Origin: Thermoanaerobaculia bacterium
Lineage (GTDB): Bacteria > Acidobacteriota > Thermoanaerobaculia > Gp7-AA8
Assembly: GCA_036261885.1 (NCBI GenBank)
Contig: DATAJY010000012.1
Coordinates: 143,458-207,457, forward strand
Length of the DNA stretch: 64,000 bases
Reading direction: 5' to 3'
Shown here: positions 28-10,227 of the stretch, in pieces
Position numbering within the stretch: position 1 is the first letter of the stretch
Layout: every line of letters begins with the position of its first letter
Made by a program: the position numbers and the translations under genes
Notes under the pieces: generated by a model
Told to the model about the DNA's origin: nothing
What the model saw: the letters and a program-made list of their open reading frames with translations, nothing else
Database searches by the model: none

Positions 28-981
28 GTGAAGCGCTTCCTCACCCTGGCCCGGCCATTCACGCTGCTCCCGCCGCTGCTCGGAATCATCTCCGGCGCGG
101 TCTGCGCGTGGGGATCGGCGCACAACCCCGATCCGTCGCGCGCGGTGACGGTCTCGGTGATTCTGACCGTCGCGCTCGGCTCGCTCTGCGCCGCGTTTCT
201 CAACGCCGCGAACAACACGCTCAATCAGATCTACGACCTCGAGATCGATCGCATCAACAAGCCGAATCGTCCGCTCGTGACCGGCGAGGTCTCGATCCGC
301 GACGCCTGGGTCTTCACCTGGATCTGCTACGCCGTCGGCACCATCCCGACCTGGCTCGTGGTCGTCTATCCGTACACCACGTTCACGCGGAAGCTCTTCG
401 CTCCGCTCTCGTGGCACGAGTGCTTTTTCATCTACGCCGTGGCGCTGCTCTCGACGTTCGTCTATTCGGTCCCGGCGCTCGGCCGCACGAAAGCGCATCC
501 GATCGGTGCGAACCTCACCATCGCCATTCCCCGCGGCTGTCTCCTGAAAGTGGCCGGCTGGACGATGGTCGCGCGCGCGTCGTTCGCCGAGCCGTGGTTC
601 ATCGGTCTGATCTTCATGACCTTCCTCCTCGGCGCGGCGTCGACGAAAGACTTCAGCGACATGGATGGCGATCGCGCCGGCGGCTGCCGTACGCTGCCGA
701 TCGCATTCGGCGTGCGCAGAGCCGCGTGGATGATCGCGCCGTTCTTCGTGCTGCCGTGGTTGCTGATGCCGCTCGGGGCCCGTCTCGGCATCCTCACCGG
801 GAACGCGACGTTCATCACGATTCTCGGGATCGTCCTCGCGCTGTGGGGCGTCTACACGGTCTGGTTGATCGTGCGCAATCCCGACGAACTCACCGCGACG
901 GAGAATCACCCGTCGTGGCGGCACATGTATCTGATGATGATGGCCGCGCAGGTCGGCTTTGCCGCAGCCTATCTCGTTTGA
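28..981 (+). CDS. UbiA-family prenyltransferase (integral membrane)
   Basis: 317-aa ORF with many hydrophobic segments. Asp-rich motif NNTLNQIYDLEIDRINKPNRP and a second acidic motif KDFSDMDGDR are typical of the UbiA superfamily. The frame is open to the window edge, so the true start could lie upstream of GTG 28. Confidence 0.8.
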   Translation: MKRFLTLARPFTLLPPLLGIISGAVCAWGSAHNPDPSRAVTVSVILTVALGSLCAAFLNAANNTLNQIYDLEIDRINKPNRPLVTGEVSIRDAWVFTWICYAVGTIPTWLVVVYPYTTFTRKLFAPLSWHECFFIYAVALLSTFVYSVPALGRTKAHPIGANLTIAIPRGCLLKVAGWTMVARASFAEPWFIGLIFMTFLLGAASTKDFSDMDGDRAGGCRTLPIAFGVRRAAWMIAPFFVLPWLLMPLGARLGILTGNATFITILGIVLALWGVYTVWLIVRNPDELTATENHPSWRHMYLMMMAAQVGFAAAYLV

Positions 982-1038
982 TCGCCGTCGCGTCTGCTAA
1001 ACTCGCTCGTTCAGTTCGCATCGGTCCGCAGGTCAATC

Positions 1039-1416
1039 ATGAGAATTCCGCAGCCGCCCGTGAGCCACGAGTGTATCGACGGCGAAGTCGTCATCATCAA
1101 CATGGAGACGGGCACGTACTACAGCCTGCTCGGTCTCGCGTCGACGCTCTGGCAGAACATCGTCGCGGGAACGACTTACGACCGGCTGCTCGCCCGCTTC
1201 GACGGGGACGTGCAGCCTGAAGTCAGCGCGTTTCTCCACGAGCTCGCACAGGACCGCCTCGTCGATCTCGACGCGGAGCCCGCGCAGATCGGTGAAGAGA
1301 TCGCACTGCCGGCGTACAGCACTCCGCGCGTCGAGAGATTCACGGACCTTCAGGAACTGCTGATGCTCGACCCGATTCACGAAGTCGACGCCGCAGGCTG
1401 GCCCCACAAGAGCTGA
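1039..1416 (+). CDS. PqqD-family protein (RiPP-recognition-element-like peptide chaperone)
   Basis: 125-aa ORF. The pattern IDGEVVIINMETGTYYSLLGLASTLWQNI...VSAFLHELAQDRLV matches the PqqD/RRE winged-helix signature as I remember it. No clear SD, so the start is uncertain. Confidence 0.7.
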   Translation: MRIPQPPVSHECIDGEVVIINMETGTYYSLLGLASTLWQNIVAGTTYDRLLARFDGDVQPEVSAFLHELAQDRLVDLDAEPAQIGEEIALPAYSTPRVERFTDLQELLMLDPIHEVDAAGWPHKS

Positions 1417-1418
1417 CG

Positions 1419-2411
1419 GTGCCGCTTACGCAGCAGCTCGAGATCGAAGATGTCTTCGCCGTCGCCGCGGCGCGCCTCGGCGTTTACGAAGATCATCTCT
1501 CGATCGCCGGACTGCACGTCCAGCTCCGATTCGCCGGCGATCGTCTGCGCACGCGACTCCTGCCCGCACTCACGCATCGCATCACCGTTCCGCGCGATCC
1601 CGACGCGACGATCCTGATTTACGACTGCGCGTCCGCGCGCATCGAGAAGCCCGCCGTTCCGTGGCGCGCCGAAGACGTTGGCGTGCGCGGCGAGGTTCAG
1701 CTCGACGACGCGCTGCGCGTCTCGCTCTTCGCACCGTCGGGCGCGCTGAGTGTGTTCGACGCGTCGCGCAATCTCGGGATCTTCACCGTCGGCGACGCCA
1801 TCGGACTGCCGTCATACGAACGCGCGGCACCGTTCCGCACGTTGCTGCACTGGCTGCTCGAATCGCGAAATTGCAGGCTCGCACACGCGGCCGCCGTCGC
1901 GACGGATCGCGGCGGTGCGTTGCTCGCGGGTCGCGGCGGCTCGGGCAAATCGACGACGGCGCTCCTCTGCGCGACTGCCGGACTGCGTTACGCCGGCGAC
2001 GACTACGTCGGCATCACGGCCGCTCCCGCGACCGCGCACGCGCTGTACTCGAGCGCGAAGATCGATGCGACGTCCGCGGCGTTGCTGCCCGGCGTCGCGC
2101 TGCACATCGACCCGCGGGAGAATGAAAAAGGTGTGGCGTTGCTGACCGAAGTCGCCGATTCCTTTCCGATTCGCGCGCTCGTGTTGCCGCGGGTCACCGG
2201 CGGCACGTCGCGACTTCGGCGGGCGAGTGGTGCCGAGGCGTTGCGGGCGCTTGCGCCGACGACGGTGTTCCAACTGCCCGGCAATGACGGCGCGACGTTC
2301 GCGTGGATGGCCACGCTCGCACGTACGATCCCCGCGTTCGCGCTCGACCTCGGCGACGATCGCGAGCAGATCCCCGCGCTCGTGCAGCGCGCGATCGAGG
2401 AGAGCGCATGA
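1419..2411 (+). CDS. HprK-related kinase-like P-loop protein
   Basis: 330-aa ORF with a GTG start 2 nt after the PqqD-like stop. P-loop GRGGSGKSTTALL followed by YAGDDYV resembles the HPr kinase C-terminal domain. Confidence 0.65.
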   Translation: MPLTQQLEIEDVFAVAAARLGVYEDHLSIAGLHVQLRFAGDRLRTRLLPALTHRITVPRDPDATILIYDCASARIEKPAVPWRAEDVGVRGEVQLDDALRVSLFAPSGALSVFDASRNLGIFTVGDAIGLPSYERAAPFRTLLHWLLESRNCRLAHAAAVATDRGGALLAGRGGSGKSTTALLCATAGLRYAGDDYVGITAAPATAHALYSSAKIDATSAALLPGVALHIDPRENEKGVALLTEVADSFPIRALVLPRVTGGTSRLRRASGAEALRALAPTTVFQLPGNDGATFAWMATLARTIPAFALDLGDDREQIPALVQRAIEESA

Positions 2412-3070
2412 GCGTCGTGAGCGTGATCGTTCCGACATTCAACGGCGCCGCGACGATCGTCGAGGCGGTGGAAAGCGTGCGCGCGCAGTCGATGCCCGTC
2501 GAGATTCTCGTCGTCGACGACGGCTCCACCGACGACACGCCGCGCCTCCTTCGCGACCTCGGCGTCCTCACGATTCGTCAGGAAAATGCCGGCCCCGCGG
2601 CCGCGCGCAACACGGGACTCGCGCATGCGACCGCGGCGTACGTCGCGTTCATCGACGACGACGACATCTGGATGCCGCGCCGCCTCGCCACGCAGCTCGC
2701 GATTCTCGAAGCGCATCCGGAGGTGTTCGCGACGATCGGCTACTCCGCGTTCGTCGCGTGTGATGCGAACGGCGATGCGATGGGCGAGCCGACCGAACCG
2801 CATCTCTTCGCGAACATGGGCGCAGCGCTCGTGCGTCGCGAGGCCTTCGATCGCATCGGCGCGTTCGATCCGACACTCACGGGCAGCGAAGACGTCGACT
2901 GGTATCTCCGACTGCGCGACGCCGGACTCGGTCCGCTGATCACGCGCGATCTCGTGCAGCTCGTGCGCAGAACCGGCGAGAACATGACGCGCGGCAAAGA
3001 TCTGCGCGAGCTCGACATGCACACGGTGCTGCAGCGCTCCATCGCGCGGCGGAGGAAGGTGGGCGCATGA
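2408..3070 (+). CDS. Glycosyltransferase family 2
   Basis: Internal ATG 2408 overlaps the upstream stop (ATGA). N-terminus VSVIVPTFNGAATIVEAVESVRAQS...ILVVDDGSTDDT, then FIDDDD (DxD). Classic GT2 fold motifs. Confidence 0.85.
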   Translation: MSVVSVIVPTFNGAATIVEAVESVRAQSMPVEILVVDDGSTDDTPRLLRDLGVLTIRQENAGPAAARNTGLAHATAAYVAFIDDDDIWMPRRLATQLAILEAHPEVFATIGYSAFVACDANGDAMGEPTEPHLFANMGAALVRREAFDRIGAFDPTLTGSEDVDWYLRLRDAGLGPLITRDLVQLVRRTGENMTRGKDLRELDMHTVLQRSIARRRKVGA

Positions 3071-3741
3071 CGCAGCAACCGCCCGTCGCGGTGATCGTGC
3101 CGGTGTTCAACGGTGCGCGCTTTCTTGCCGAGGCGCTGGACAGCGTGCTGGCGCAGGACTATCGGCCGCTGGAGATCATCGTCGTCGACGATGGCTCGAC
3201 CGACGGCAGTGCGGAGATCGCAGCGACGCGCGAAGTCCTCGTCATCCGCCAGGAACGTCGCGGCGTCGCGACGGCGCGCAACGTCGGCATCGCCGCGGCG
3301 ACCGCGCCGATCCTCATGCTGATCGATCAGGACGACCTCTGGCGGCCCGGCAAGGCGCGCAAGCAGGTCGACGTGTTGCTCGCGCATCCCGATCGCGTCT
3401 GTCTGACGCTGCAGGAGTTTTTCCTCGACGCATCGATCGCGGAGCGGCCGGTCTGGATGCGGCCGGAGTTGATGGACGCGCCGAGTCCGGGATGGATGCC
3501 GAGCTGCATCGCATTCACGCGATCGACGTTCGAGTATGTCGGCGAGTTCGATCCGAGCTACGCGCAGGGCAGCGATTCGGACTGGTTCGCCCGCGCCAAA
3601 GCGAAGGGCGTCCTCTTTGAAACGATCGAGGAGTCGCTCGTGCGGCATCGCCTTCATGATTCCAACGAGTCAGGCGCGGTGAGCGCGCATCGCGAACTGC
3701 TGCAGGTGGTGCGTCGCGCGGTGGCGCAACGACGGAAATGA
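3067..3741 (+). CDS. Glycosyltransferase family 2
   Basis: ATGA overlap with the upstream gene. VAVIVPVFNGARFLAEALDSVLAQDYRPLEIIVVDDGSTDGS and LIDQDD motifs. Confidence 0.85.
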   Translation: MTQQPPVAVIVPVFNGARFLAEALDSVLAQDYRPLEIIVVDDGSTDGSAEIAATREVLVIRQERRGVATARNVGIAAATAPILMLIDQDDLWRPGKARKQVDVLLAHPDRVCLTLQEFFLDASIAERPVWMRPELMDAPSPGWMPSCIAFTRSTFEYVGEFDPSYAQGSDSDWFARAKAKGVLFETIEESLVRHRLHDSNESGAVSAHRELLQVVRRAVAQRRK

Positions 3742-4439
3742 CGCCCATGAATCAGCCTTTTCTCAGCGTCGTCGTCCCGGCGTACAACTCCGAGCGCACC
3801 ATCGCGGAGGCGCTCGAAAGCGTGCTCGCGCAGACCCCGCGCGAAACCGAAGTGATCATCGTCGATGACGGCTCGACCGACGGCACGGTCGCGGTCGCGG
3901 AAGGATTCGGCTACCTCGTGCGCATCGTGCGCGCGCCACACGCCGGCATCGCGCGCACGTTCAACCGCGGCATGCAGGAGGCGCGCGGCAAATGGGTTGC
4001 ATCGATCGACGCCGACGATCGCTGGCTGCCGCACAAGCTCGAGCGCCAGTTCGCCGCGCTCGATGCGGATCCTTCCATCGACGTCGTGTTCGGCTTCGTG
4101 CGCCAGTTCGTTTCTCCCGAGCTCGCCGATCAGCGCTGGCGTTTCGCGATCTCCGATGAGCCCGTGCCCGGCCTGCATCGCGGCTGCATGCTCATGCGTC
4201 GCGAGGTGTGGGATCGCGTCGGCGAGTTCGATACGAAGATCTCCGCCGGCGAGTTCGTCGGCTGGTACGCGCGCGCCGTCGATGCGGGCGTGACGATGCA
4301 CACGATCCCCGAGGTCATTTACGAGCGGCGCGTGCACGACAACAACACCGTTCGCCGCGAGCGCTCCACGCTCGACAGCAATTACCTGCGTGTGCTCAAG
4401 GCGACGCTCGATCGCCGTCGCACGGAGAAGAACGGTTGA
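3738..4439 (+). CDS. Glycosyltransferase family 2
   Basis: ATGA overlap with the upstream gene. LSVVVPAYNSERTIAEALESVLAQTPRETEVIIVDDGSTDGT and SIDADD motifs. Confidence 0.85.
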   Translation: MTPMNQPFLSVVVPAYNSERTIAEALESVLAQTPRETEVIIVDDGSTDGTVAVAEGFGYLVRIVRAPHAGIARTFNRGMQEARGKWVASIDADDRWLPHKLERQFAALDADPSIDVVFGFVRQFVSPELADQRWRFAISDEPVPGLHRGCMLMRREVWDRVGEFDTKISAGEFVGWYARAVDAGVTMHTIPEVIYERRVHDNNTVRRERSTLDSNYLRVLKATLDRRRTEKNG

Positions 4440-4468
4440 TCTACTTCGCGCATCGCTCCGGCACGTTC

Positions 4469-5581
4469 ATGCCGACCCGCGTCGAGCATCATCTGCTGCG
4501 CGCGTCGCTGTCGGCGGACGCCGTCGCGGTGCGCGCGTCGTTCGATGAGTGGAAGGCATCCGTCGATTTGAACGACGTCGAGTACGGATCGCTGCGTCTG
4601 TTGCCGCTGCTGTATCGCAACCTGCAGAAACACGGCATCGACGACGCGGTGATGCCGCGCCTCAAAGGCATCTATCGCAACGCGTGGGTGCGCAATCAGC
4701 TCGTCGTCCAACACGGACTCCGCGCGATGCGCGCACTGCGCGAGCAAGGCATCGCGTCGATCGTGCTCAAGGGCGCGTCGTTGGTCGCCGATGGTTCGTA
4801 CGCGGAGCTCGCATTGCGTCCGATGGAAGACTTCGATCTCCTCGTCGCGCCGGACGAATTTCGTCGCGCGGTCGATGTGCTGCGCGATGGCGGCTGGAAC
4901 TTTCATCCGGCGTCCGTCGAGGCCGAGTGGTACCTGCCGTATCGCCACGCGGTCGCGTTTCGCAACGGCAGCGGCGAGCTCGATCTGCACTGGGCGTCGA
5001 TTCGCGATCGCTTCCACGGCGACGATGCATTTCGTCGCGCGTCCGTCGATGCGAAGCTGCTGGGCGAGGACGTGCGCGTGCTGGCGCCGCCCGATCAGTT
5101 GCTGCAGGCGTGCGGACACGCGAGCGCACGCAACGTCGACGTCGCGCCGATCCGCTGGGTCGCGGACGTCTGGTTCCTCCTCGCGAAACACGGCGACGCG
5201 TTCGACTGGCAACGCGTCGTGAGCGGCGCGCGCGATCGCGACCTCTCCTTCGCCGCGCTCCGGTGCCTCGAATACCTCCATGTCGGCCTCGGCGCCAACA
5301 TCCCGCTCACGGTTCTGCTCGAGCTCGAACGCGACTCCGGCATCGCCAGTCGCGTGTCGCTGAAGCTGCGCAACAGCTACGGTCCCGCGATCTACGCGTA
5401 CGTGCTATCGGTGTGGCTGCGACTCGCATTCGCGAAGCCGTATCGCGGCATCCCGCGCCGCGTCGCGCTGCTGCCGAAATACGTGCGCTTCTACTTCCGC
5501 CTGCCGCAGGACGCATCGCTGATGCGCTTCGTCGCGCGCAAGCTGAGAGCGCGCCTCGCTCCGGCGTCATCCCAGGCGTAA
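4469..5581 (+). CDS. Uncharacterised nucleotidyltransferase family protein (NTP_transf_5-like)
   Basis: Frame of ORF 4208..5581. First ATG after the upstream stop is 4469; an alternative TTG at 4436 overlaps that stop. VLKGASLVADGSYAELALRPMEDFDLLVAPDEF matches the PF14907-type motif as I remember it. Confidence 0.65.
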   Translation: MPTRVEHHLLRASLSADAVAVRASFDEWKASVDLNDVEYGSLRLLPLLYRNLQKHGIDDAVMPRLKGIYRNAWVRNQLVVQHGLRAMRALREQGIASIVLKGASLVADGSYAELALRPMEDFDLLVAPDEFRRAVDVLRDGGWNFHPASVEAEWYLPYRHAVAFRNGSGELDLHWASIRDRFHGDDAFRRASVDAKLLGEDVRVLAPPDQLLQACGHASARNVDVAPIRWVADVWFLLAKHGDAFDWQRVVSGARDRDLSFAALRCLEYLHVGLGANIPLTVLLELERDSGIASRVSLKLRNSYGPAIYAYVLSVWLRLAFAKPYRGIPRRVALLPKYVRFYFRLPQDASLMRFVARKLRARLAPASSQA

Positions 5582-5599
5582 ACACGGGATCCCCTTCAC

Positions 5600-7024
5600 T
5601 CAAACGCTCGCCGCCAGCTCCTTCCGCAGAAACGCGATCGCCGATTCGAGCTGATGGCGCTCCAGCGCGATCGCCCGGACGTCGCCGCCGCAGTGCGGGC
5701 AGATCTGCGTCATCGGCTGGATGTACTGCATGCAGCCGAAGCAGAGATCGAGCGTCGGCGGCAGCCGATCTTCGTCGCGCTGCTCCGGTTCCTTCATCTC
5801 CCACCGCGGCGGCACGGCGACCGTGCGCGGACCCTCGCCCCCATCGAGCGGCTCGGTGATGAGATCGAAGCGTCCCTGATCGAACGGCGTGCCGGGCGCT
5901 TCCTGCGTCTTCACGATCCGCTCGCGCAGGCCTTCCTTCGCCAGCTGCGTGGCGCGGTAATGACAGTACGGATTGTTGCCCGGACGTCCGAACAACACGG
6001 TCGAAGTCCACGTGCAGCCGCCGCGGCAGACGTCGGCGTAGTAGCACGTGCCGCAACGCCCCCACAGTTCGGAGATCTGGCGATCGCGCGAGAAGCGGAT
6101 CTCGCGGCTGTAGCGCCAGATGTCTTCGATGGTCATGTCGCGAACGTTGCCGCCGCTGAAGCCGACGGTCGGCAGCGACGGACATCCTTTGATCACACCA
6201 TCGGCCTCGATGCCCATCACGCCGTGACCGGCCGCGCATCCGCTCCAGTGCTTTTCGTTGTTGCCGAGGCGCCACTTGTGCTCGTACGGTCCGAAGTAGC
6301 CGACGTTGTTGCCGGGCTGCATGGCCACGCCGAGCGCGCGCGCCTCGTCGTACAACTCGCCGAGGAGCGGCATCAGGTCGAGCAGTTCATACGGCTGCAG
6401 GAGCAGCGAGTCGTTGTCGACGGCATTCCCCATTGCCACCGTCAGCTGGATCTGCCAGCCGCGCGCACCGCGGCTCGCGATCTCGTGCAGGATGCCGCGC
6501 ATCTGCGGCATGGTCCGGCTGTGGATCTGCGTGTTGCAGCCGGCCGGAATCTCGTACTGGCGCAGCAGCTCGAGCGCGTGCATCGCGGAGCGGAACGAGC
6601 CCTTCACACCCCGGATCTCGTCGTGCAGCTCCTCGAGCCCGTCGACCGACACGCCGCACGTGCCGAGGCCTGCTTTCTTCGCCGCCGCAATGCGCTCCTC
6701 GGTGAGCGCGCGTCCGCCGGTCTGCATCGACGCCAGCATCCCGTGACTGGTGATGCGGGCGATGATGTCGGTCCAGTCGCGGCGCAGATACGCTTCGCCG
6801 CCGATGATCGTGATCTCGCGCGTGCCGAGTGCGGCGAGCTGATCGACGACGTCGAAACACTCCTCGGTCGACAGCTCCGAGGGACGACGCTTCCCCGCGC
6901 GCGAGCCGCAATGCGCGCACTTCAGATTGCACGCGAGCGTGATCTCCCACACCACGTGCACGGGATGGGCGTGCATGAAATCGTCTTCACGCAACGCACG
7001 GCGGGGAAGCGCCTCGGCGGTCAT
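5600..7024 (-). CDS. Radical SAM / SPASM-domain enzyme with C-terminal zinc-ribbon extension
   Basis: 474 aa. CxxxCxxC cluster motif ITLACNLKCAHCGS. SPASM-like Cys cluster GCPSLP...GRCGTCYYADVCRGGCTWTS...YCHY. An extra about 100-aa tail carries CFGCMQYIQPMTQICPHCGG. Confidence 0.85.
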   Translation of the reverse strand: MTAEALPRRALREDDFMHAHPVHVVWEITLACNLKCAHCGSRAGKRRPSELSTEECFDVVDQLAALGTREITIIGGEAYLRRDWTDIIARITSHGMLASMQTGGRALTEERIAAAKKAGLGTCGVSVDGLEELHDEIRGVKGSFRSAMHALELLRQYEIPAGCNTQIHSRTMPQMRGILHEIASRGARGWQIQLTVAMGNAVDNDSLLLQPYELLDLMPLLGELYDEARALGVAMQPGNNVGYFGPYEHKWRLGNNEKHWSGCAAGHGVMGIEADGVIKGCPSLPTVGFSGGNVRDMTIEDIWRYSREIRFSRDRQISELWGRCGTCYYADVCRGGCTWTSTVLFGRPGNNPYCHYRATQLAKEGLRERIVKTQEAPGTPFDQGRFDLITEPLDGGEGPRTVAVPPRWEMKEPEQRDEDRLPPTLDLCFGCMQYIQPMTQICPHCGGDVRAIALERHQLESAIAFLRKELAASV

Positions 7025-7314
7025 GAGGTCTGGGTCGATCCGAGATGCTGTTCGAGTGTGCTGATCGCCGCCGAGAGATCGGCACGCCCGGTCGCACGCG
7101 CCGATTCGAGCAGCGACTGCAGCTCTTCCTTCGATGCGCCGGCGGAGATCCGCTGCTGGATGATCACGCCGTACAGCGTGTGAAGACCGCCGTCATTGAA
7201 ATACCCCTTTGCGGCCTGCAAGACCTCTTTCATCTGATTCGCATCGCCGCTGCTCAGCGCTTCGTCGATCCAGACTCCATACAAGGGACGCGGACGGGAA
7301 CCATAGCCTGCCAT
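7021..7314 (-). CDS. Small internally repeated helical protein (possible rSAM substrate or partner)
   Basis: ATG 7314 is preceded by AAGGAGG with a 6-nt spacer (reverse complement of 7318-7326). The stop overlaps the rSAM start (ATGA at 7021-7024). Two repeats: LYGVWIDEALSSGDANQMKEVL and LYGVIIQQRISAGASKEELQSLL. Possibly DUF1843-like (from memory). Confidence 0.6.
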   Translation of the reverse strand: MAGYGSRPRPLYGVWIDEALSSGDANQMKEVLQAAKGYFNDGGLHTLYGVIIQQRISAGASKEELQSLLESARATGRADLSAAISTLEQHLGSTQTS

Positions 7315-7429
7315 AGCTGCCTCCTTTTTTCCGTGGGACAACGGATGTTTATGGGAAGGAAGAAATGATTAGTGTCCAAACGGCAGGAAGTCAACAATCA
7401 AAAATAGCAGGCTGTGCGACGATAGCCCG

Positions 7430-8332
7430 ATGTTCTCCCTCCGGCCCGAGCTCGAACGATTGCGGCCGCTGCTCGGCGAGTCACGCACCGACGCGCTGAT
7501 CGCCCGCGAGCGGCGCGAAATCTTTTCGATCTACCCGGAAGTGCGCCTCGCCGCGTGGGCTGGCGTGATGCTCCTCGCCGGCGCCGCCGGCGTTCTGTTG
7601 AAAAACAATCTCGAGCGCATCGGACCGGTCGCTCTCGCCACCGGCATCGCCGTGCTCGCCGCCGCGTGCTATGCCTTCGTCACTTGGCGCCGCGACCGCG
7701 CCACGCTCGTCGATGATTACGTTCTGCTCCTTGGGGCACTGCTCCTCAGCGCCGACGTCGCGTTCATCGAGACGCAGTTCCACGTTCTCGGCCAGCAGTG
7801 GCGACAGCATCTGTTGCTCATCGCGATCCTGCACGCCATCACCGCGTATCGCTTTCGATCGCGCGTGATTCTGTCGCTCGCGATCTCGTCGCTGGCCGCG
7901 TGGGTCGGAGCCGATCATCGCATCGCGCGGCCGTACCAGTTCGGCGTCGCCGCGTACGTCATGGTCGCGCTGCTGCTGGTGTGGCGCGCGCTCGATCAGC
8001 GTTTCGCGAAGAGCGATTTCGCGCGCACGCTCGAACACTTCGCCGCGAACTTCGCGCTGCTCGGCGGGCTCGCGTTCATCGATACGAACGTCGCCGCCGG
8101 CTGCCTGATCACCATCGTCGTTGCGGCGGTGGTCATCTACTGGGGCTTCGGCTCGCGCAGCGAGTGGTTCGTGCTCTATGCGTTTCTCTACGCCGTGATC
8201 GCGCTGAACATCCTCATCATCGACGCGATGCACTTCGAGGCGGCGGCGTTCCTGCTGATCATCGTTTCGATCGTCGGCTCGATCATCGGCCTCTTCGCCA
8301 TTCATGCGAAATTCAAGGAACTGCACGCATGA
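7430..8332 (+). CDS. Polytopic membrane protein, unknown function
   Basis: 300-aa ORF with about 8 hydrophobic helices. Strong third-position GC bias in this frame. Divergent from the small protein/rSAM pair across an AT-richer spacer. Confidence 0.6.
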   Translation: MFSLRPELERLRPLLGESRTDALIARERREIFSIYPEVRLAAWAGVMLLAGAAGVLLKNNLERIGPVALATGIAVLAAACYAFVTWRRDRATLVDDYVLLLGALLLSADVAFIETQFHVLGQQWRQHLLLIAILHAITAYRFRSRVILSLAISSLAAWVGADHRIARPYQFGVAAYVMVALLLVWRALDQRFAKSDFARTLEHFAANFALLGGLAFIDTNVAAGCLITIVVAAVVIYWGFGSRSEWFVLYAFLYAVIALNILIIDAMHFEAAAFLLIIVSIVGSIIGLFAIHAKFKELHA

Positions 8333-9846: not shown

Positions 9847-9999
9847 ATGAAGGATTTGAAGCAGTCGACTCGTCCTGTGAACCATGCCCCCGTCCGCTCC
9901 GTTTCGCTGCAGATCCGCGATTATCAGGTGACGGTGAAGGTCAGGTCGTCGGTGCCGCAAATCCAGGGTTCTCGCTCCGTTCGCGCGTCGTTTCGTTGA
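9847..9999 (+). CDS. Possible 50-aa leader ORF in nrdJ 5' region
   Basis: ATG 9847 is preceded by GGGAGG with a 5-nt spacer. Translation: MKDLKQSTRPVNHAPVRSVSLQIRDYQVTVKVRSSVPQIQGSRSVRASFR. Codon bias is weak, so it may be non-coding. Confidence 0.2.
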   Translation: MKDLKQSTRPVNHAPVRSVSLQIRDYQVTVKVRSSVPQIQGSRSVRASFR

Positions 10000-10022: not shown

Positions 10023-10054
10023 GCCATCGCACCCACCAATTTTGGTGCGATGGC
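10023..10054 (+). promoter_or_regulatory. Perfect 11-bp stem hairpin in nrdJ leader
   Basis: GCCATCGCACC (10023-10033), 10-nt loop, GGTGCGATGGC (10044-10054). Confidence 0.5.
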
Positions 10055-10174
10055 AGTGTCGGGGGAGGTAGGGGATGGAAGTTCGGTCGAGGGACACCGG
10101 AGTCCCGGCGGCGCTCTGAAAAGGATCCACAGAGCTCCTGCCGTTCGGTTTCCTTCCACGCAGGTCGAACTGCC

Positions 10175-10218
10175 CTCCTCTGCTTTTTTTTTCTGAATGT
10201 GTGTGTGATTGAGAGGAG
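10175..10218 (+). promoter_or_regulatory. Possible anti-SD/SD pairing plus T9 tract ahead of nrdJ
   Basis: CTCCTCT (10175-10181) is complementary to AGAGGAG (10212-10218) in the nrdJ SD region GAGAGGAGAG. A run of nine T (10184-10192) lies between them. Confidence 0.3.
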
Positions 10219-10227
10219 AGTTGAGTC

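Follow-up and report, generated by a model that had tools for sequence, protein, structure and literature searches.

What does a radical S-adenosylmethionine (rSAM)/SPASM enzyme do to the small protein encoded immediately upstream of it, and does a third, convergently transcribed set of genes take part in the reaction? This question is raised by a gene pair in a 64,000-nucleotide (nt) stretch of the genome of a Thermoanaerobaculia bacterium (Acidobacteriota; assembly GCA_036261885.1, contig DATAJY010000012.1, positions 143,458 to 207,457), which is the window analysed here. The first gene (7021-7314, minus strand; ATG at 7314, stop TGA at 7023-7021) encodes a 97-amino-acid (aa) protein of the DUF1843 family, the predicted substrate; the second (5600-7024, minus strand) encodes a 474-aa enzyme of NCBIfam family TIGR03913 with Pfam Radical_SAM and SPASM matches. 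Two-gene systems of this kind are already catalogued, and the pair is an ordinary member of one; the pairing of DUF1843 with the rSAM enzyme is not new, as it is already contained in the curated NCBIfam family name. The small protein is the partner of the rSAM enzyme and very probably its substrate, and it is fairly probable that the reaction consists of tyramine excision at L11-Y12-G13, and probably also at L47-Y48-G49, to leave alpha-keto-beta-leucine residues.

With TIGR03913 (GDL motif peptide-associated rSAM/SPASM maturase), whose cut-off is 591.75 bits, the enzyme scores 633.1 bits, with residues 5-461 aligned to model positions 2-463 of 477; homologues carry the older JGI label 'Y-X(10)_GDL-associated radical SAM protein'. 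Next among the NCBIfam models comes TIGR04103, 'nif11-class peptide radical SAM maturase 3' (467.7 bits, E = 2.6e-140, residues 22-395), and the third-best and all further models give 167 bits or less. We take TIGR04103 to be the model of the PlpX splicease family and to correspond to the InterPro entry IPR026482, a mapping that is assumed here. The cysteines of the CX3CX2C motif for the radical-SAM [4Fe-4S] cluster (C32, C36 and C39; 6908-6931, minus strand) and those of the SPASM region (residues 263-354; 5963-6238, minus strand; C263, C281, C324-x2-C327-x5-C333-x3-C337 and C354; Pfam SPASM match at residues 263-328) are all invariant in the enzyme alignment. The nearest relatives are found in Thermoanaerobaculia metagenome-assembled genomes (MAGs), with 92% identity in locus L003, and members from Ralstonia, Pseudomonas, Chromobacterium and Sorangium are 55-58% identical. 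The AlphaFold2 (AF2) model of the enzyme (pLDDT 77.8, pTM 0.81) includes a beta-hairpin at residues 366-392, after the SPASM region.

An enzyme with this fold might be a known cofactor or protein maturase (AhbD, NirJ, PqqE, MftC or anSME) beside which the small gene is incidental, and the common rSAM-SPASM fold and weak matches to these models would be in keeping with that. The scores fall far below the respective cut-offs (151 of 500 bits for AhbD, 130 of 515 for NirJ, 125 of 265 for MftC, 106 of 381 for PqqE and 57 of 349 for anSME), the TIGR03913 cut-off is passed, and a DUF1843 gene is adjacent to the enzyme gene in all the genome loci described below, which makes this explanation next to impossible. 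A cofactor-maturase identity is thus effectively refuted by the hidden Markov model scores and the DUF1843 adjacency, and the enzyme lies outside the AhbD/NirJ/PqqE/anSME-type clades; the refuting condition that the initial annotation had set on this point does not apply.

To place the family among its relatives, the 150 best representatives (50% clustering) were drawn from a library of 1.8 billion proteins and 20 diverse ones were tested on NCBIfam. At E <= 1e-60, each of the 20 matches both TIGR03913 and TIGR04103 and nothing further, indicating that the two models mark one clade; the TIGR04103 cut-off is reached by none of the 20. In the proposed mechanism, the window enzyme would share this clade with the tyramine spliceases PlpX, PcpX and RhaX. 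A review places PlpX in the SPASM-rSAM subclass IPR026482 and describes its reaction as removal of tyramine from Xaa-Tyr-Gly, after which the chain is rejoined as an alpha-ketoamide. Splicease pathways number in the hundreds and occur in diverse bacteria (published counts are 189 genera, and 27 characterised plus 939 predicted systems), and all the non-cyanobacterial ones consist of enzyme and precursor only, without a PqqD-like Y protein.

The small protein belongs to DUF1843 (PF08898; E = 1.4e-11, 45.2 bits against a gathering cut-off of 23.3), a family that the initial annotation had named as a guess. The Pfam match covers residues 10-43 on model positions 1-34 of 52, and the second repeat and the tail align with complete single-domain homologues. 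The protein has an extra N-terminal half-domain (about residues 8-43) followed by one complete DUF1843 domain (about residues 44-92), as compared with the 56-65-aa single-domain proteins found elsewhere. The similarity of its two LYGV repeats is more than chance, as had been noticed from the letters alone: residues 8-43 and 44-79 give a BLOSUM62 local score of 43, which is reached by none of 5000 shuffles, and when the profiles of the two halves, taken over 27 homologues, are compared, the probability is 97.9% (E = 4e-13). The same two-repeat layout is present in all 26 homologues (92-125 aa) from Thermoanaerobaculia MAGs and metagenomes, and within this family L11, Y12, G13, V14, D24 and Y48 are invariant and the C-terminal tail DLxxAIxxLExHL is conserved. 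A search of the PDB with the small-protein profile returned only helical matches at chance level and a weak match to 8T0B, a DUF1842-DUF1843 protein discussed below.

Conservation of the gene pair points to a dedicated enzyme-substrate relationship. A one-genome-per-species scan gave 579 enzyme relatives, and 80 loci with 10-kb flanks were kept for locus counts. In an iterated search started from the window's small protein, all 80 of these genome loci proved to have a DUF1843 open reading frame (ORF) immediately upstream of the enzyme gene and on its strand, with copy numbers from one to five, and in metagenome loci DUF1843 lies upstream of the enzymes with a C-terminal zinc ribbon (see below) in 15 of 15 cases; the proposal that the small protein is substrate or partner of the enzyme is much strengthened by these counts. 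Spacing of the two genes is also close among orthologues: they overlap by 1 nt in L088 and are separated by 0 nt in L083 and by 12 nt in L084. When all ORFs of the 80 loci were clustered all against all, only the rSAM genes, out-of-frame shadow ORFs and DUF1842/DUF1843 genes recurred, with no protease, exporter or helper among the clusters. Likewise, L083, L084 and L086, which carry orthologues of 80-82% identity, have only the gene pair in common according to their Pfam annotation. Because no other neighbour is conserved, the unit is a two-gene module.

The number and form of the substrate genes vary. Pseudomonas, Ralstonia, Chromobacterium and the Burkholderia-group genera Trinickia and Paraburkholderia have a trio of one short DUF1843 gene and two genes for fusions of about 200 aa, in which a DUF1842 part of about 150 aa precedes DUF1843, whereas the window has one substrate gene. 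Unlike the proteobacterial substrates, its product has the extra half-domain, two Tyr sites, and Y-X10-GDA and Y-X10-GAS in place of Y-X10-GDL. What is distinctive in the window pair is this single substrate gene of one and a half domains with a degenerate GDL motif; in the rest (length, cysteine framework, C-terminal zinc ribbon and upstream DUF1843 gene) it is like other TIGR03913 members. Some Thermoanaerobaculia genomes carry two or three paralogous rSAM plus DUF1843 systems (L007, L011 and L018 in the MAG DASPMO01; L006 and L024 in DASWOB01), whose enzymes are 61-81% identical to the window enzyme, and a clade at 62-65% identity (L009, L012 and L014-L016) has two substrate genes, one for a two-repeat protein of about 105 aa and one for a single-domain protein of 56-64 aa. 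The 64-kb window contains one such system only.

A constant companion of an enzyme could also be an obligate structural or activating partner, comparable with the activating helix of PlpY, the actual substrate being encoded elsewhere or not being a peptide. Conservation of the small protein over its full length, unlike a hypervariable core of a ribosomally made peptide with post-translational modifications (RiPP), would fit such a role, as would the lack of a conserved protease or exporter gene nearby and the fact that helical Y proteins activate spliceases. Its best-conserved element, however, is X-Tyr-Gly/Ala at a disordered-to-helix boundary, where a substrate site is expected; up to five paralogues per locus, some of them fused to DUF1842, fit substrates better than a stoichiometric subunit; and the neighbourhoods contain no other conserved candidate substrate. 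A purely activating role is therefore considered very unlikely, and the DUF1843 protein is treated below as the substrate.

The features of the predicted modification sites point to tyramine splicing. The codons of the first site, L11-Y12-G13, lie at 7276-7284 (minus strand), and these residues are invariant in 27 of 27 family members; those of the predicted second site, L47-Y48-G49 in repeat 2, lie at 7168-7176 (minus strand). At the second site, Y48 is invariant in the 27 sequences and L47 nearly so, and residue 49 is Gly in 20 and Ala in 7. In DUF1843 more widely, 185 of 185 ORFs examined have the anchor Tyr, followed by Gly or Ala, and 76 of the 80 loci have at least one X-Y-G site. The sequence around the first site, SRPRPLYGVWI, resembles the splice tag of PlpA3, GPIRPLYGLPI, with RPLYG common to both. 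In the AF2 model, the small protein is all-helical with a moderate mean pLDDT of 69.6; residues 1-11 are disordered and the Y12 site is at the N-terminal end of helix 1, where disorder gives way to helix.

In the proposed mechanism, the TIGR03913 enzyme, whose translation is coupled to that of the upstream gene, modifies the small helical DUF1843 protein. L11-Y12-G13 would be converted to alpha-keto-beta-leucine joined to Gly at the disordered-to-helix boundary, L47-Y48-G49 in repeat 2 would probably be converted likewise, and the product would be a protein with electrophilic ketoamide groups, one or two in number. Splicing of RasA, at LYG, yields an elastase inhibitor (0.03 uM) that contains alpha-keto-beta-leucine, and the ketoamide groups of the spliceotides tested so far are inhibitors of serine and cysteine proteases. 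Thioether chemistry of the sactipeptide or ranthipeptide type was also considered and is ruled out, since the 97-aa protein contains no Cys; in the wider family, no Cys follows the Tyr in 182 of 195 DUF1843 instances.

Enzymes of the clade that lack the zinc ribbon provide a further view of the substrates. Metagenome contigs were scanned with an alignment of TIGR04103-leaning relatives, and the zinc-ribbon-less enzymes found there have no clear DUF1843 gene, with partial exceptions in L133 (a truncated enzyme with a DUF1843 match) and L130 (a weak match). The precursors beside them are unrelated proteins with repeated X-Y-G motifs, such as three VYGPPP-type repeats in L101 and L118. Tyr-Gly is the one feature common to these different precursors, as a splicease clade would predict. 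Among relatives without DUF1843, YG occurs in 13% of upstream ORFs as compared with 5% of background ORFs; this test is weak because the precursors lie mostly downstream.

Two loci illustrate the range of these precursors. In L112, a 145-aa protein (75-512, plus strand) with five near-identical HPMYGAPIRDPI repeats is encoded directly upstream of a 414-aa enzyme relative. In L097, a 165-aa protein (680-1177, plus strand) has the sites RPLYGVFMRD and IAMYGVFLNQ with helices after each, and this layout is intermediate between the repeat precursors and DUF1843. A third type is found in 32 metagenome loci (L103, L106, L113, L119, L121, L145, L156, L160 and others), where one or two genes after, or sometimes before, the enzyme gene encode proteins of 100-250 aa. 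Each begins with a zinc ribbon, L.PCP.C.RHVR..E..CPFC, and has in addition a hydrophobic segment and a region rich in Gly, Ala and Pro that carries one to five (P/A)xYG(A/G)P motifs; they have the appearance of splicease precursors of a class of their own, anchored in the membrane.

The zinc ribbon of these precursors might explain how TIGR03913 enzymes recognize their substrates. The window enzyme has a C-terminal zinc ribbon (C428-x2-C431 ... C442-x2-C445; 5690-5743, minus strand), a mark of the TIGR03913 branch that is invariant in the enzyme alignment, followed in the AF2 model by a long alpha-helix (residues 449-473; 5606-5680, minus strand; mean pLDDT 82-90 for residues 441-474). Ribbon and helix are restricted to TIGR03913-leaning relatives, whereas the hairpin motif is clade-wide, and the ribbon is found only in enzymes paired with DUF1843. 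The profile of the enzyme ribbon, L.LCRGC.QYV.P....CPHCG.DV, aligns with that of the YG-precursor ribbon with an hhalign probability of 97.6% (E = 2.7e-12, score 47.8); as controls, 30 shuffles with the four Cys columns fixed gave a mean score of 11.2 and a maximum of 20.9, and the reversed profile gave 5.6.

The initial annotation had further supposed that the enzyme lacks a recognition element of its own, and this is right for the N-terminal side, where its AF2 model contains no PqqD- or RiPP recognition element (RRE)-type domain. Recognition without a PqqD-like helper would instead depend on the helices after the site in the substrate and on the enzyme's own zinc ribbon and C-terminal helix, the latter with a putative role in docking or activation. 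The enzyme zinc ribbon would then be the leader element of a sister precursor fused onto the enzyme. A splicease engineered to carry a leader or Y protein fused at its C-terminus splices independently of a leader; together with the likeness of the ribbons, this leads to the proposal that TIGR03913 enzymes are a natural leader fusion, which would account for the short stretch of a few residues that can precede the Tyr in DUF1843 substrates. Tentatively, TIGR03913 enzymes may thus be naturally leader-fused spliceases that put ketoamides into near-leaderless, folded helical DUF1843 proteins, at two sites in the window protein, and the stationary-phase- or quorum-sensing-induced products may act as intracellular protease inhibitors or electrophile carriers; this fuller picture is held with low confidence. 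In Chromobacterium, quorum sensing induces the rSAM/DUF1843 operon, and in Burkholderia thailandensis the induction occurs in stationary phase.

Several points weigh against splicing and against the recognition scheme built on it. The enzyme misses the TIGR04103 cut-off of 725 bits and so belongs to a sister family rather than to the TIGR04103 equivalog itself. The characterised splice motif is X-Tyr-Gly, whereas Tyr-Ala makes up about 40% of DUF1843 sites and is the only kind of site in four loci. In the AF2 model of the small protein, Y48 is inside a helix, in a model of only moderate confidence. The modification site is N-terminal to the recognition helices, the reverse of the known order of leader and then core. 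Known splice tags contain nothing that corresponds to the conserved G-D-L located eleven residues past the Tyr, which could mean a different chemistry. The similarity between the zinc ribbons spans just 33 columns. Finally, the literature search gave no case of splicing by a TIGR03913/DUF1843 member, with the splicease survey of Scott et al. (Chem 2022) outside its reach; papers retrieved for DUF1843, DUF1842, PF08898, TIGR03913 and 'GDL motif' were descriptive and contained no chemistry.

Some of these points would suit an rSAM enzyme that modifies the DUF1843 Tyr in another way, by a C-C or C-O cross-link to another side chain (of the PqqE, SuiB or cyclophane type), by beta-hydroxylation or by epimerisation. 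The frequent Tyr-Ala sites are in line with such a reaction, the curated family name says 'maturase' only, and the closest solved structures are those of the cross-linking enzymes SkfB, PqqE and SuiB. In addition, Y-X10-G-D-L, with Asp24 invariant in the window's family, suggests that a second residue is involved. The spacing is kept in the window protein (Y12-x10-G23-D24-A25 and Y48-x10-G59-A60-S61), but the motif itself is degenerate: the first motif is [GN]-D-x throughout the window's family, as compared with GDL in about 109 of about 195 instances in the wider family. The L of GDL, and in repeat 2 also the D, is not kept in the window's family (GDA, NDx, GAS). The cross-linker structures are moreover distant (14-23% identity) in comparison with the TIGR04103 match at E = 2.6e-140, and clade-wide X-Y-G precursors that are otherwise unrelated argue for a reaction defined by Tyr-Gly. 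Another Tyr chemistry is therefore regarded as possible but rather unlikely, and tyramine splicing remains the preferred reading.

Comparison with characterised systems shows where the window pair would stand among spliceases. PlpX/PlpY/PlpA and PcpXYA (type I, cyanobacteria) and RhaX/RasX and RcsX (type II, Rheinheimera) likewise combine an rSAM-SPASM enzyme with an X-Tyr-Gly substrate. X is Leu in the window substrate, as in RasA and PlpA3, and, as in the non-cyanobacterial spliceases, enzyme and precursor occur without a Y protein. Unlike spliceotide precursors, the window substrate has no Nif11/NHLP leader (DUF1843 is its only Pfam match) and is a conserved helical protein rather than a variable peptide; its site precedes the conserved helices instead of lying in a C-terminal core, and Tyr-Ala is common in the wider family. 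The window enzyme also differs from known spliceases in having the extra zinc ribbon and helix.

The PqqE/PqqD/PqqA and MftC/MftB/MftA systems have the same rSAM-SPASM fold and a conserved precursor with an essential Tyr. In contrast to them, the TIGR03913 loci have no conserved PqqD-type helper, and their up to five precursor copies and 200-aa fusions are unfit for a cofactor precursor. The closest solved structure is that of SkfB (PDB 6EFN), with which the rSAM core is shared (E = 1e-23 by sequence and 7e-18 by Foldseek). SkfB forms a thioether from Cys to an alpha-carbon and has an N-terminal recognition domain, whereas the window substrate has no Cys and the window enzyme no N-terminal domain. 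On the substrate side, the Burkholderia pseudomallei DUF1842-DUF1843 protein BPSS0212 (Q63NT7, PDB 8T0B) has the same C-terminal DUF1843 domain, by a weak profile match, and in addition a 14.5-kDa N-terminal DUF1842 domain that is not present in the window protein. It was crystallised after expression in E. coli; in that work the DUF1843 part was unresolved, no function was found, and no radical SAM enzyme is mentioned. BPSS0212-like genes are located upstream of TIGR03913 enzymes in Trinickia and Paraburkholderia (L026 and L069).

The second part of the question concerns the genes that converge on the pair. On the plus strand, a cassette at 1039-5581 encodes, by Pfam and NCBIfam, a PqqD-like protein (the first gene, 1039-1416), an HprK-related P-loop protein (a weak match), three GT2 glycosyltransferases and an NTP_transf_5 protein, and its end at 5581 is separated from the rSAM end at 5600 by 18 nt between the stop codons. 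The initial annotation, which had placed the 97-aa gene, its good Shine-Dalgarno sequence, the ATGA overlap and this 18-nt interval correctly, had taken the two units as possibly one locus in which the PqqD-like protein supplies the recognition element that the enzyme lacks; in such a scheme, the PqqD-like protein would present the substrate and the kinase and glycosyltransferases would tailor it. The short interval fits that idea, as does the requirement of type I cyanobacterial spliceases for a small PqqD-like Y protein. The juxtaposition is also kept in L001-L003 (the window's own copies and nearest relatives among the 80 loci) and in L088, whose HprK-related protein is 87% identical and which repeats the window's arrangement.

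Beyond these relatives, the association dissolves. The cassette is not within 10 kb of the other 77 genome loci, including those with orthologues at 81-85% identity, and is likewise not seen at L083, L084 and L086; the orthologous pairs of 80-85% identity that lack it are thus L005-L008, L083, L084 and L086. None of the 80 loci yielded a PqqD-like ORF when searched iteratively with the window's PqqD. Conversely, among the contexts found by starting from the HprK-related protein, which include L088, L090 has the cassette in an unrelated place, and L091, a 5-Mb contig with an HprK-related protein of 56% identity, keeps the window's gene order (RuvB, FAD protein, PqqD, kinase, GT2, NTP_transf_5, DUF2157, membrane protein, class II ribonucleotide reductase) with the rSAM pair missing. 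As the cassette and the rSAM genes converge, they cannot be co-transcribed, whereas PlpY-type helpers are located directly downstream of the splicease in the same operon; no conserved small ORF was found downstream of the rSAM gene in the loci clustered. The occurrence of the cassette without the pair, and of the pair without the cassette, indicates two independent modules that abut in this lineage. The single-locus idea is thus highly improbable, and neither it nor the supply of a recognition element by the PqqD-like protein is upheld.

The alignment of L091 (11305-13490) with the window (4469-8332) shows the boundary of the difference: in L091, NTP_transf_5 is followed directly by DUF2157 on the same strand, and in the window the rSAM pair, encoded on the other strand, stands between them. 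This suggests that the pair was inserted (1.8 kb) in the window's lineage or deleted in that of L091. With two or three GT2 genes, the cassette itself is a conserved unit in Thermoanaerobaculia-like contigs (the window, L088, L090 and L091). Its kinase and nucleotidyltransferase genes resemble the tailoring genes of some lasso-peptide clusters, but the cassette has no lasso cyclase or protease gene and no obvious precursor gene.

Signals for expression of the pair can be read upstream of the small gene. A Shine-Dalgarno sequence, AAGGAGG (7320-7326, minus strand), is separated by a 5-nt spacer from the ATG at 7314, and this start is favoured by the N-termini of the 26 homologues over the upstream TTG (7341) of the ORF list. 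About 50 nt upstream of the gene is a promoter-like site, TTGACT and AATCAT with an 18-nt spacer (7365-7394, minus strand); it is the sole sigma-70-like match in 5300-7700, where 0.2 are expected from shuffles, and is a match to the consensus only. The overlap of the genes at ATGA (7021-7024, minus strand), composed of the small-gene TGA (7021-7023) and the rSAM ATG (7022-7024), couples translation of the enzyme to that of its predicted substrate.

Elsewhere in the window, several elements lie in the gap of 900 nt that precedes the class II ribonucleotide reductase (RNR) gene. A 50-aa ORF (9847-9999, plus strand; MKDLKQSTRPVNHAPVRSVSLQIRDYQVTVKVRSSVPQIQGSRSVRASFR) is preceded by a strong ribosome-binding site, GAGGGAGG, and is probably a real small gene, because its product is conserved in L088 and in the more distant L091. 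A non-coding block between this ORF and the start of the RNR gene (about 10040-10227, plus strand) is conserved; after it, CCCTCCTCTGC and a run of nine T residues, just before the RNR ribosome-binding site, have the look of a terminator or attenuator. Scans of the window for Rfam families and tRNAs gave no match, nothing reaching an Rfam gathering score. Further upstream of the RNR gene are a near-palindrome, CCACAATTTGTGTG (about 9340), and a palindrome, ACCACAAGATCTTGTGGT (about 9755), which we take to resemble NrdR-type operator boxes.

The window pair adds one more member, from Thermoanaerobaculia (Acidobacteriota), to a widespread and named enzyme-substrate family. DUF1843 is still called a 'domain of unknown function', and its partner enzyme is not mentioned in the structural study of BPSS0212. 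If TIGR03913 enzymes are single-component spliceases acting on small folded proteins, they would provide a compact tool for introducing ketoamide and beta-amino-acid residues into proteins. From the relationship between the zinc ribbons comes a testable proposal for the transfer of substrate recognition between precursor and enzyme and, if this is true, nature would have made the same fusion of enzyme and leader that was recently engineered for leader-independent protein splicing.

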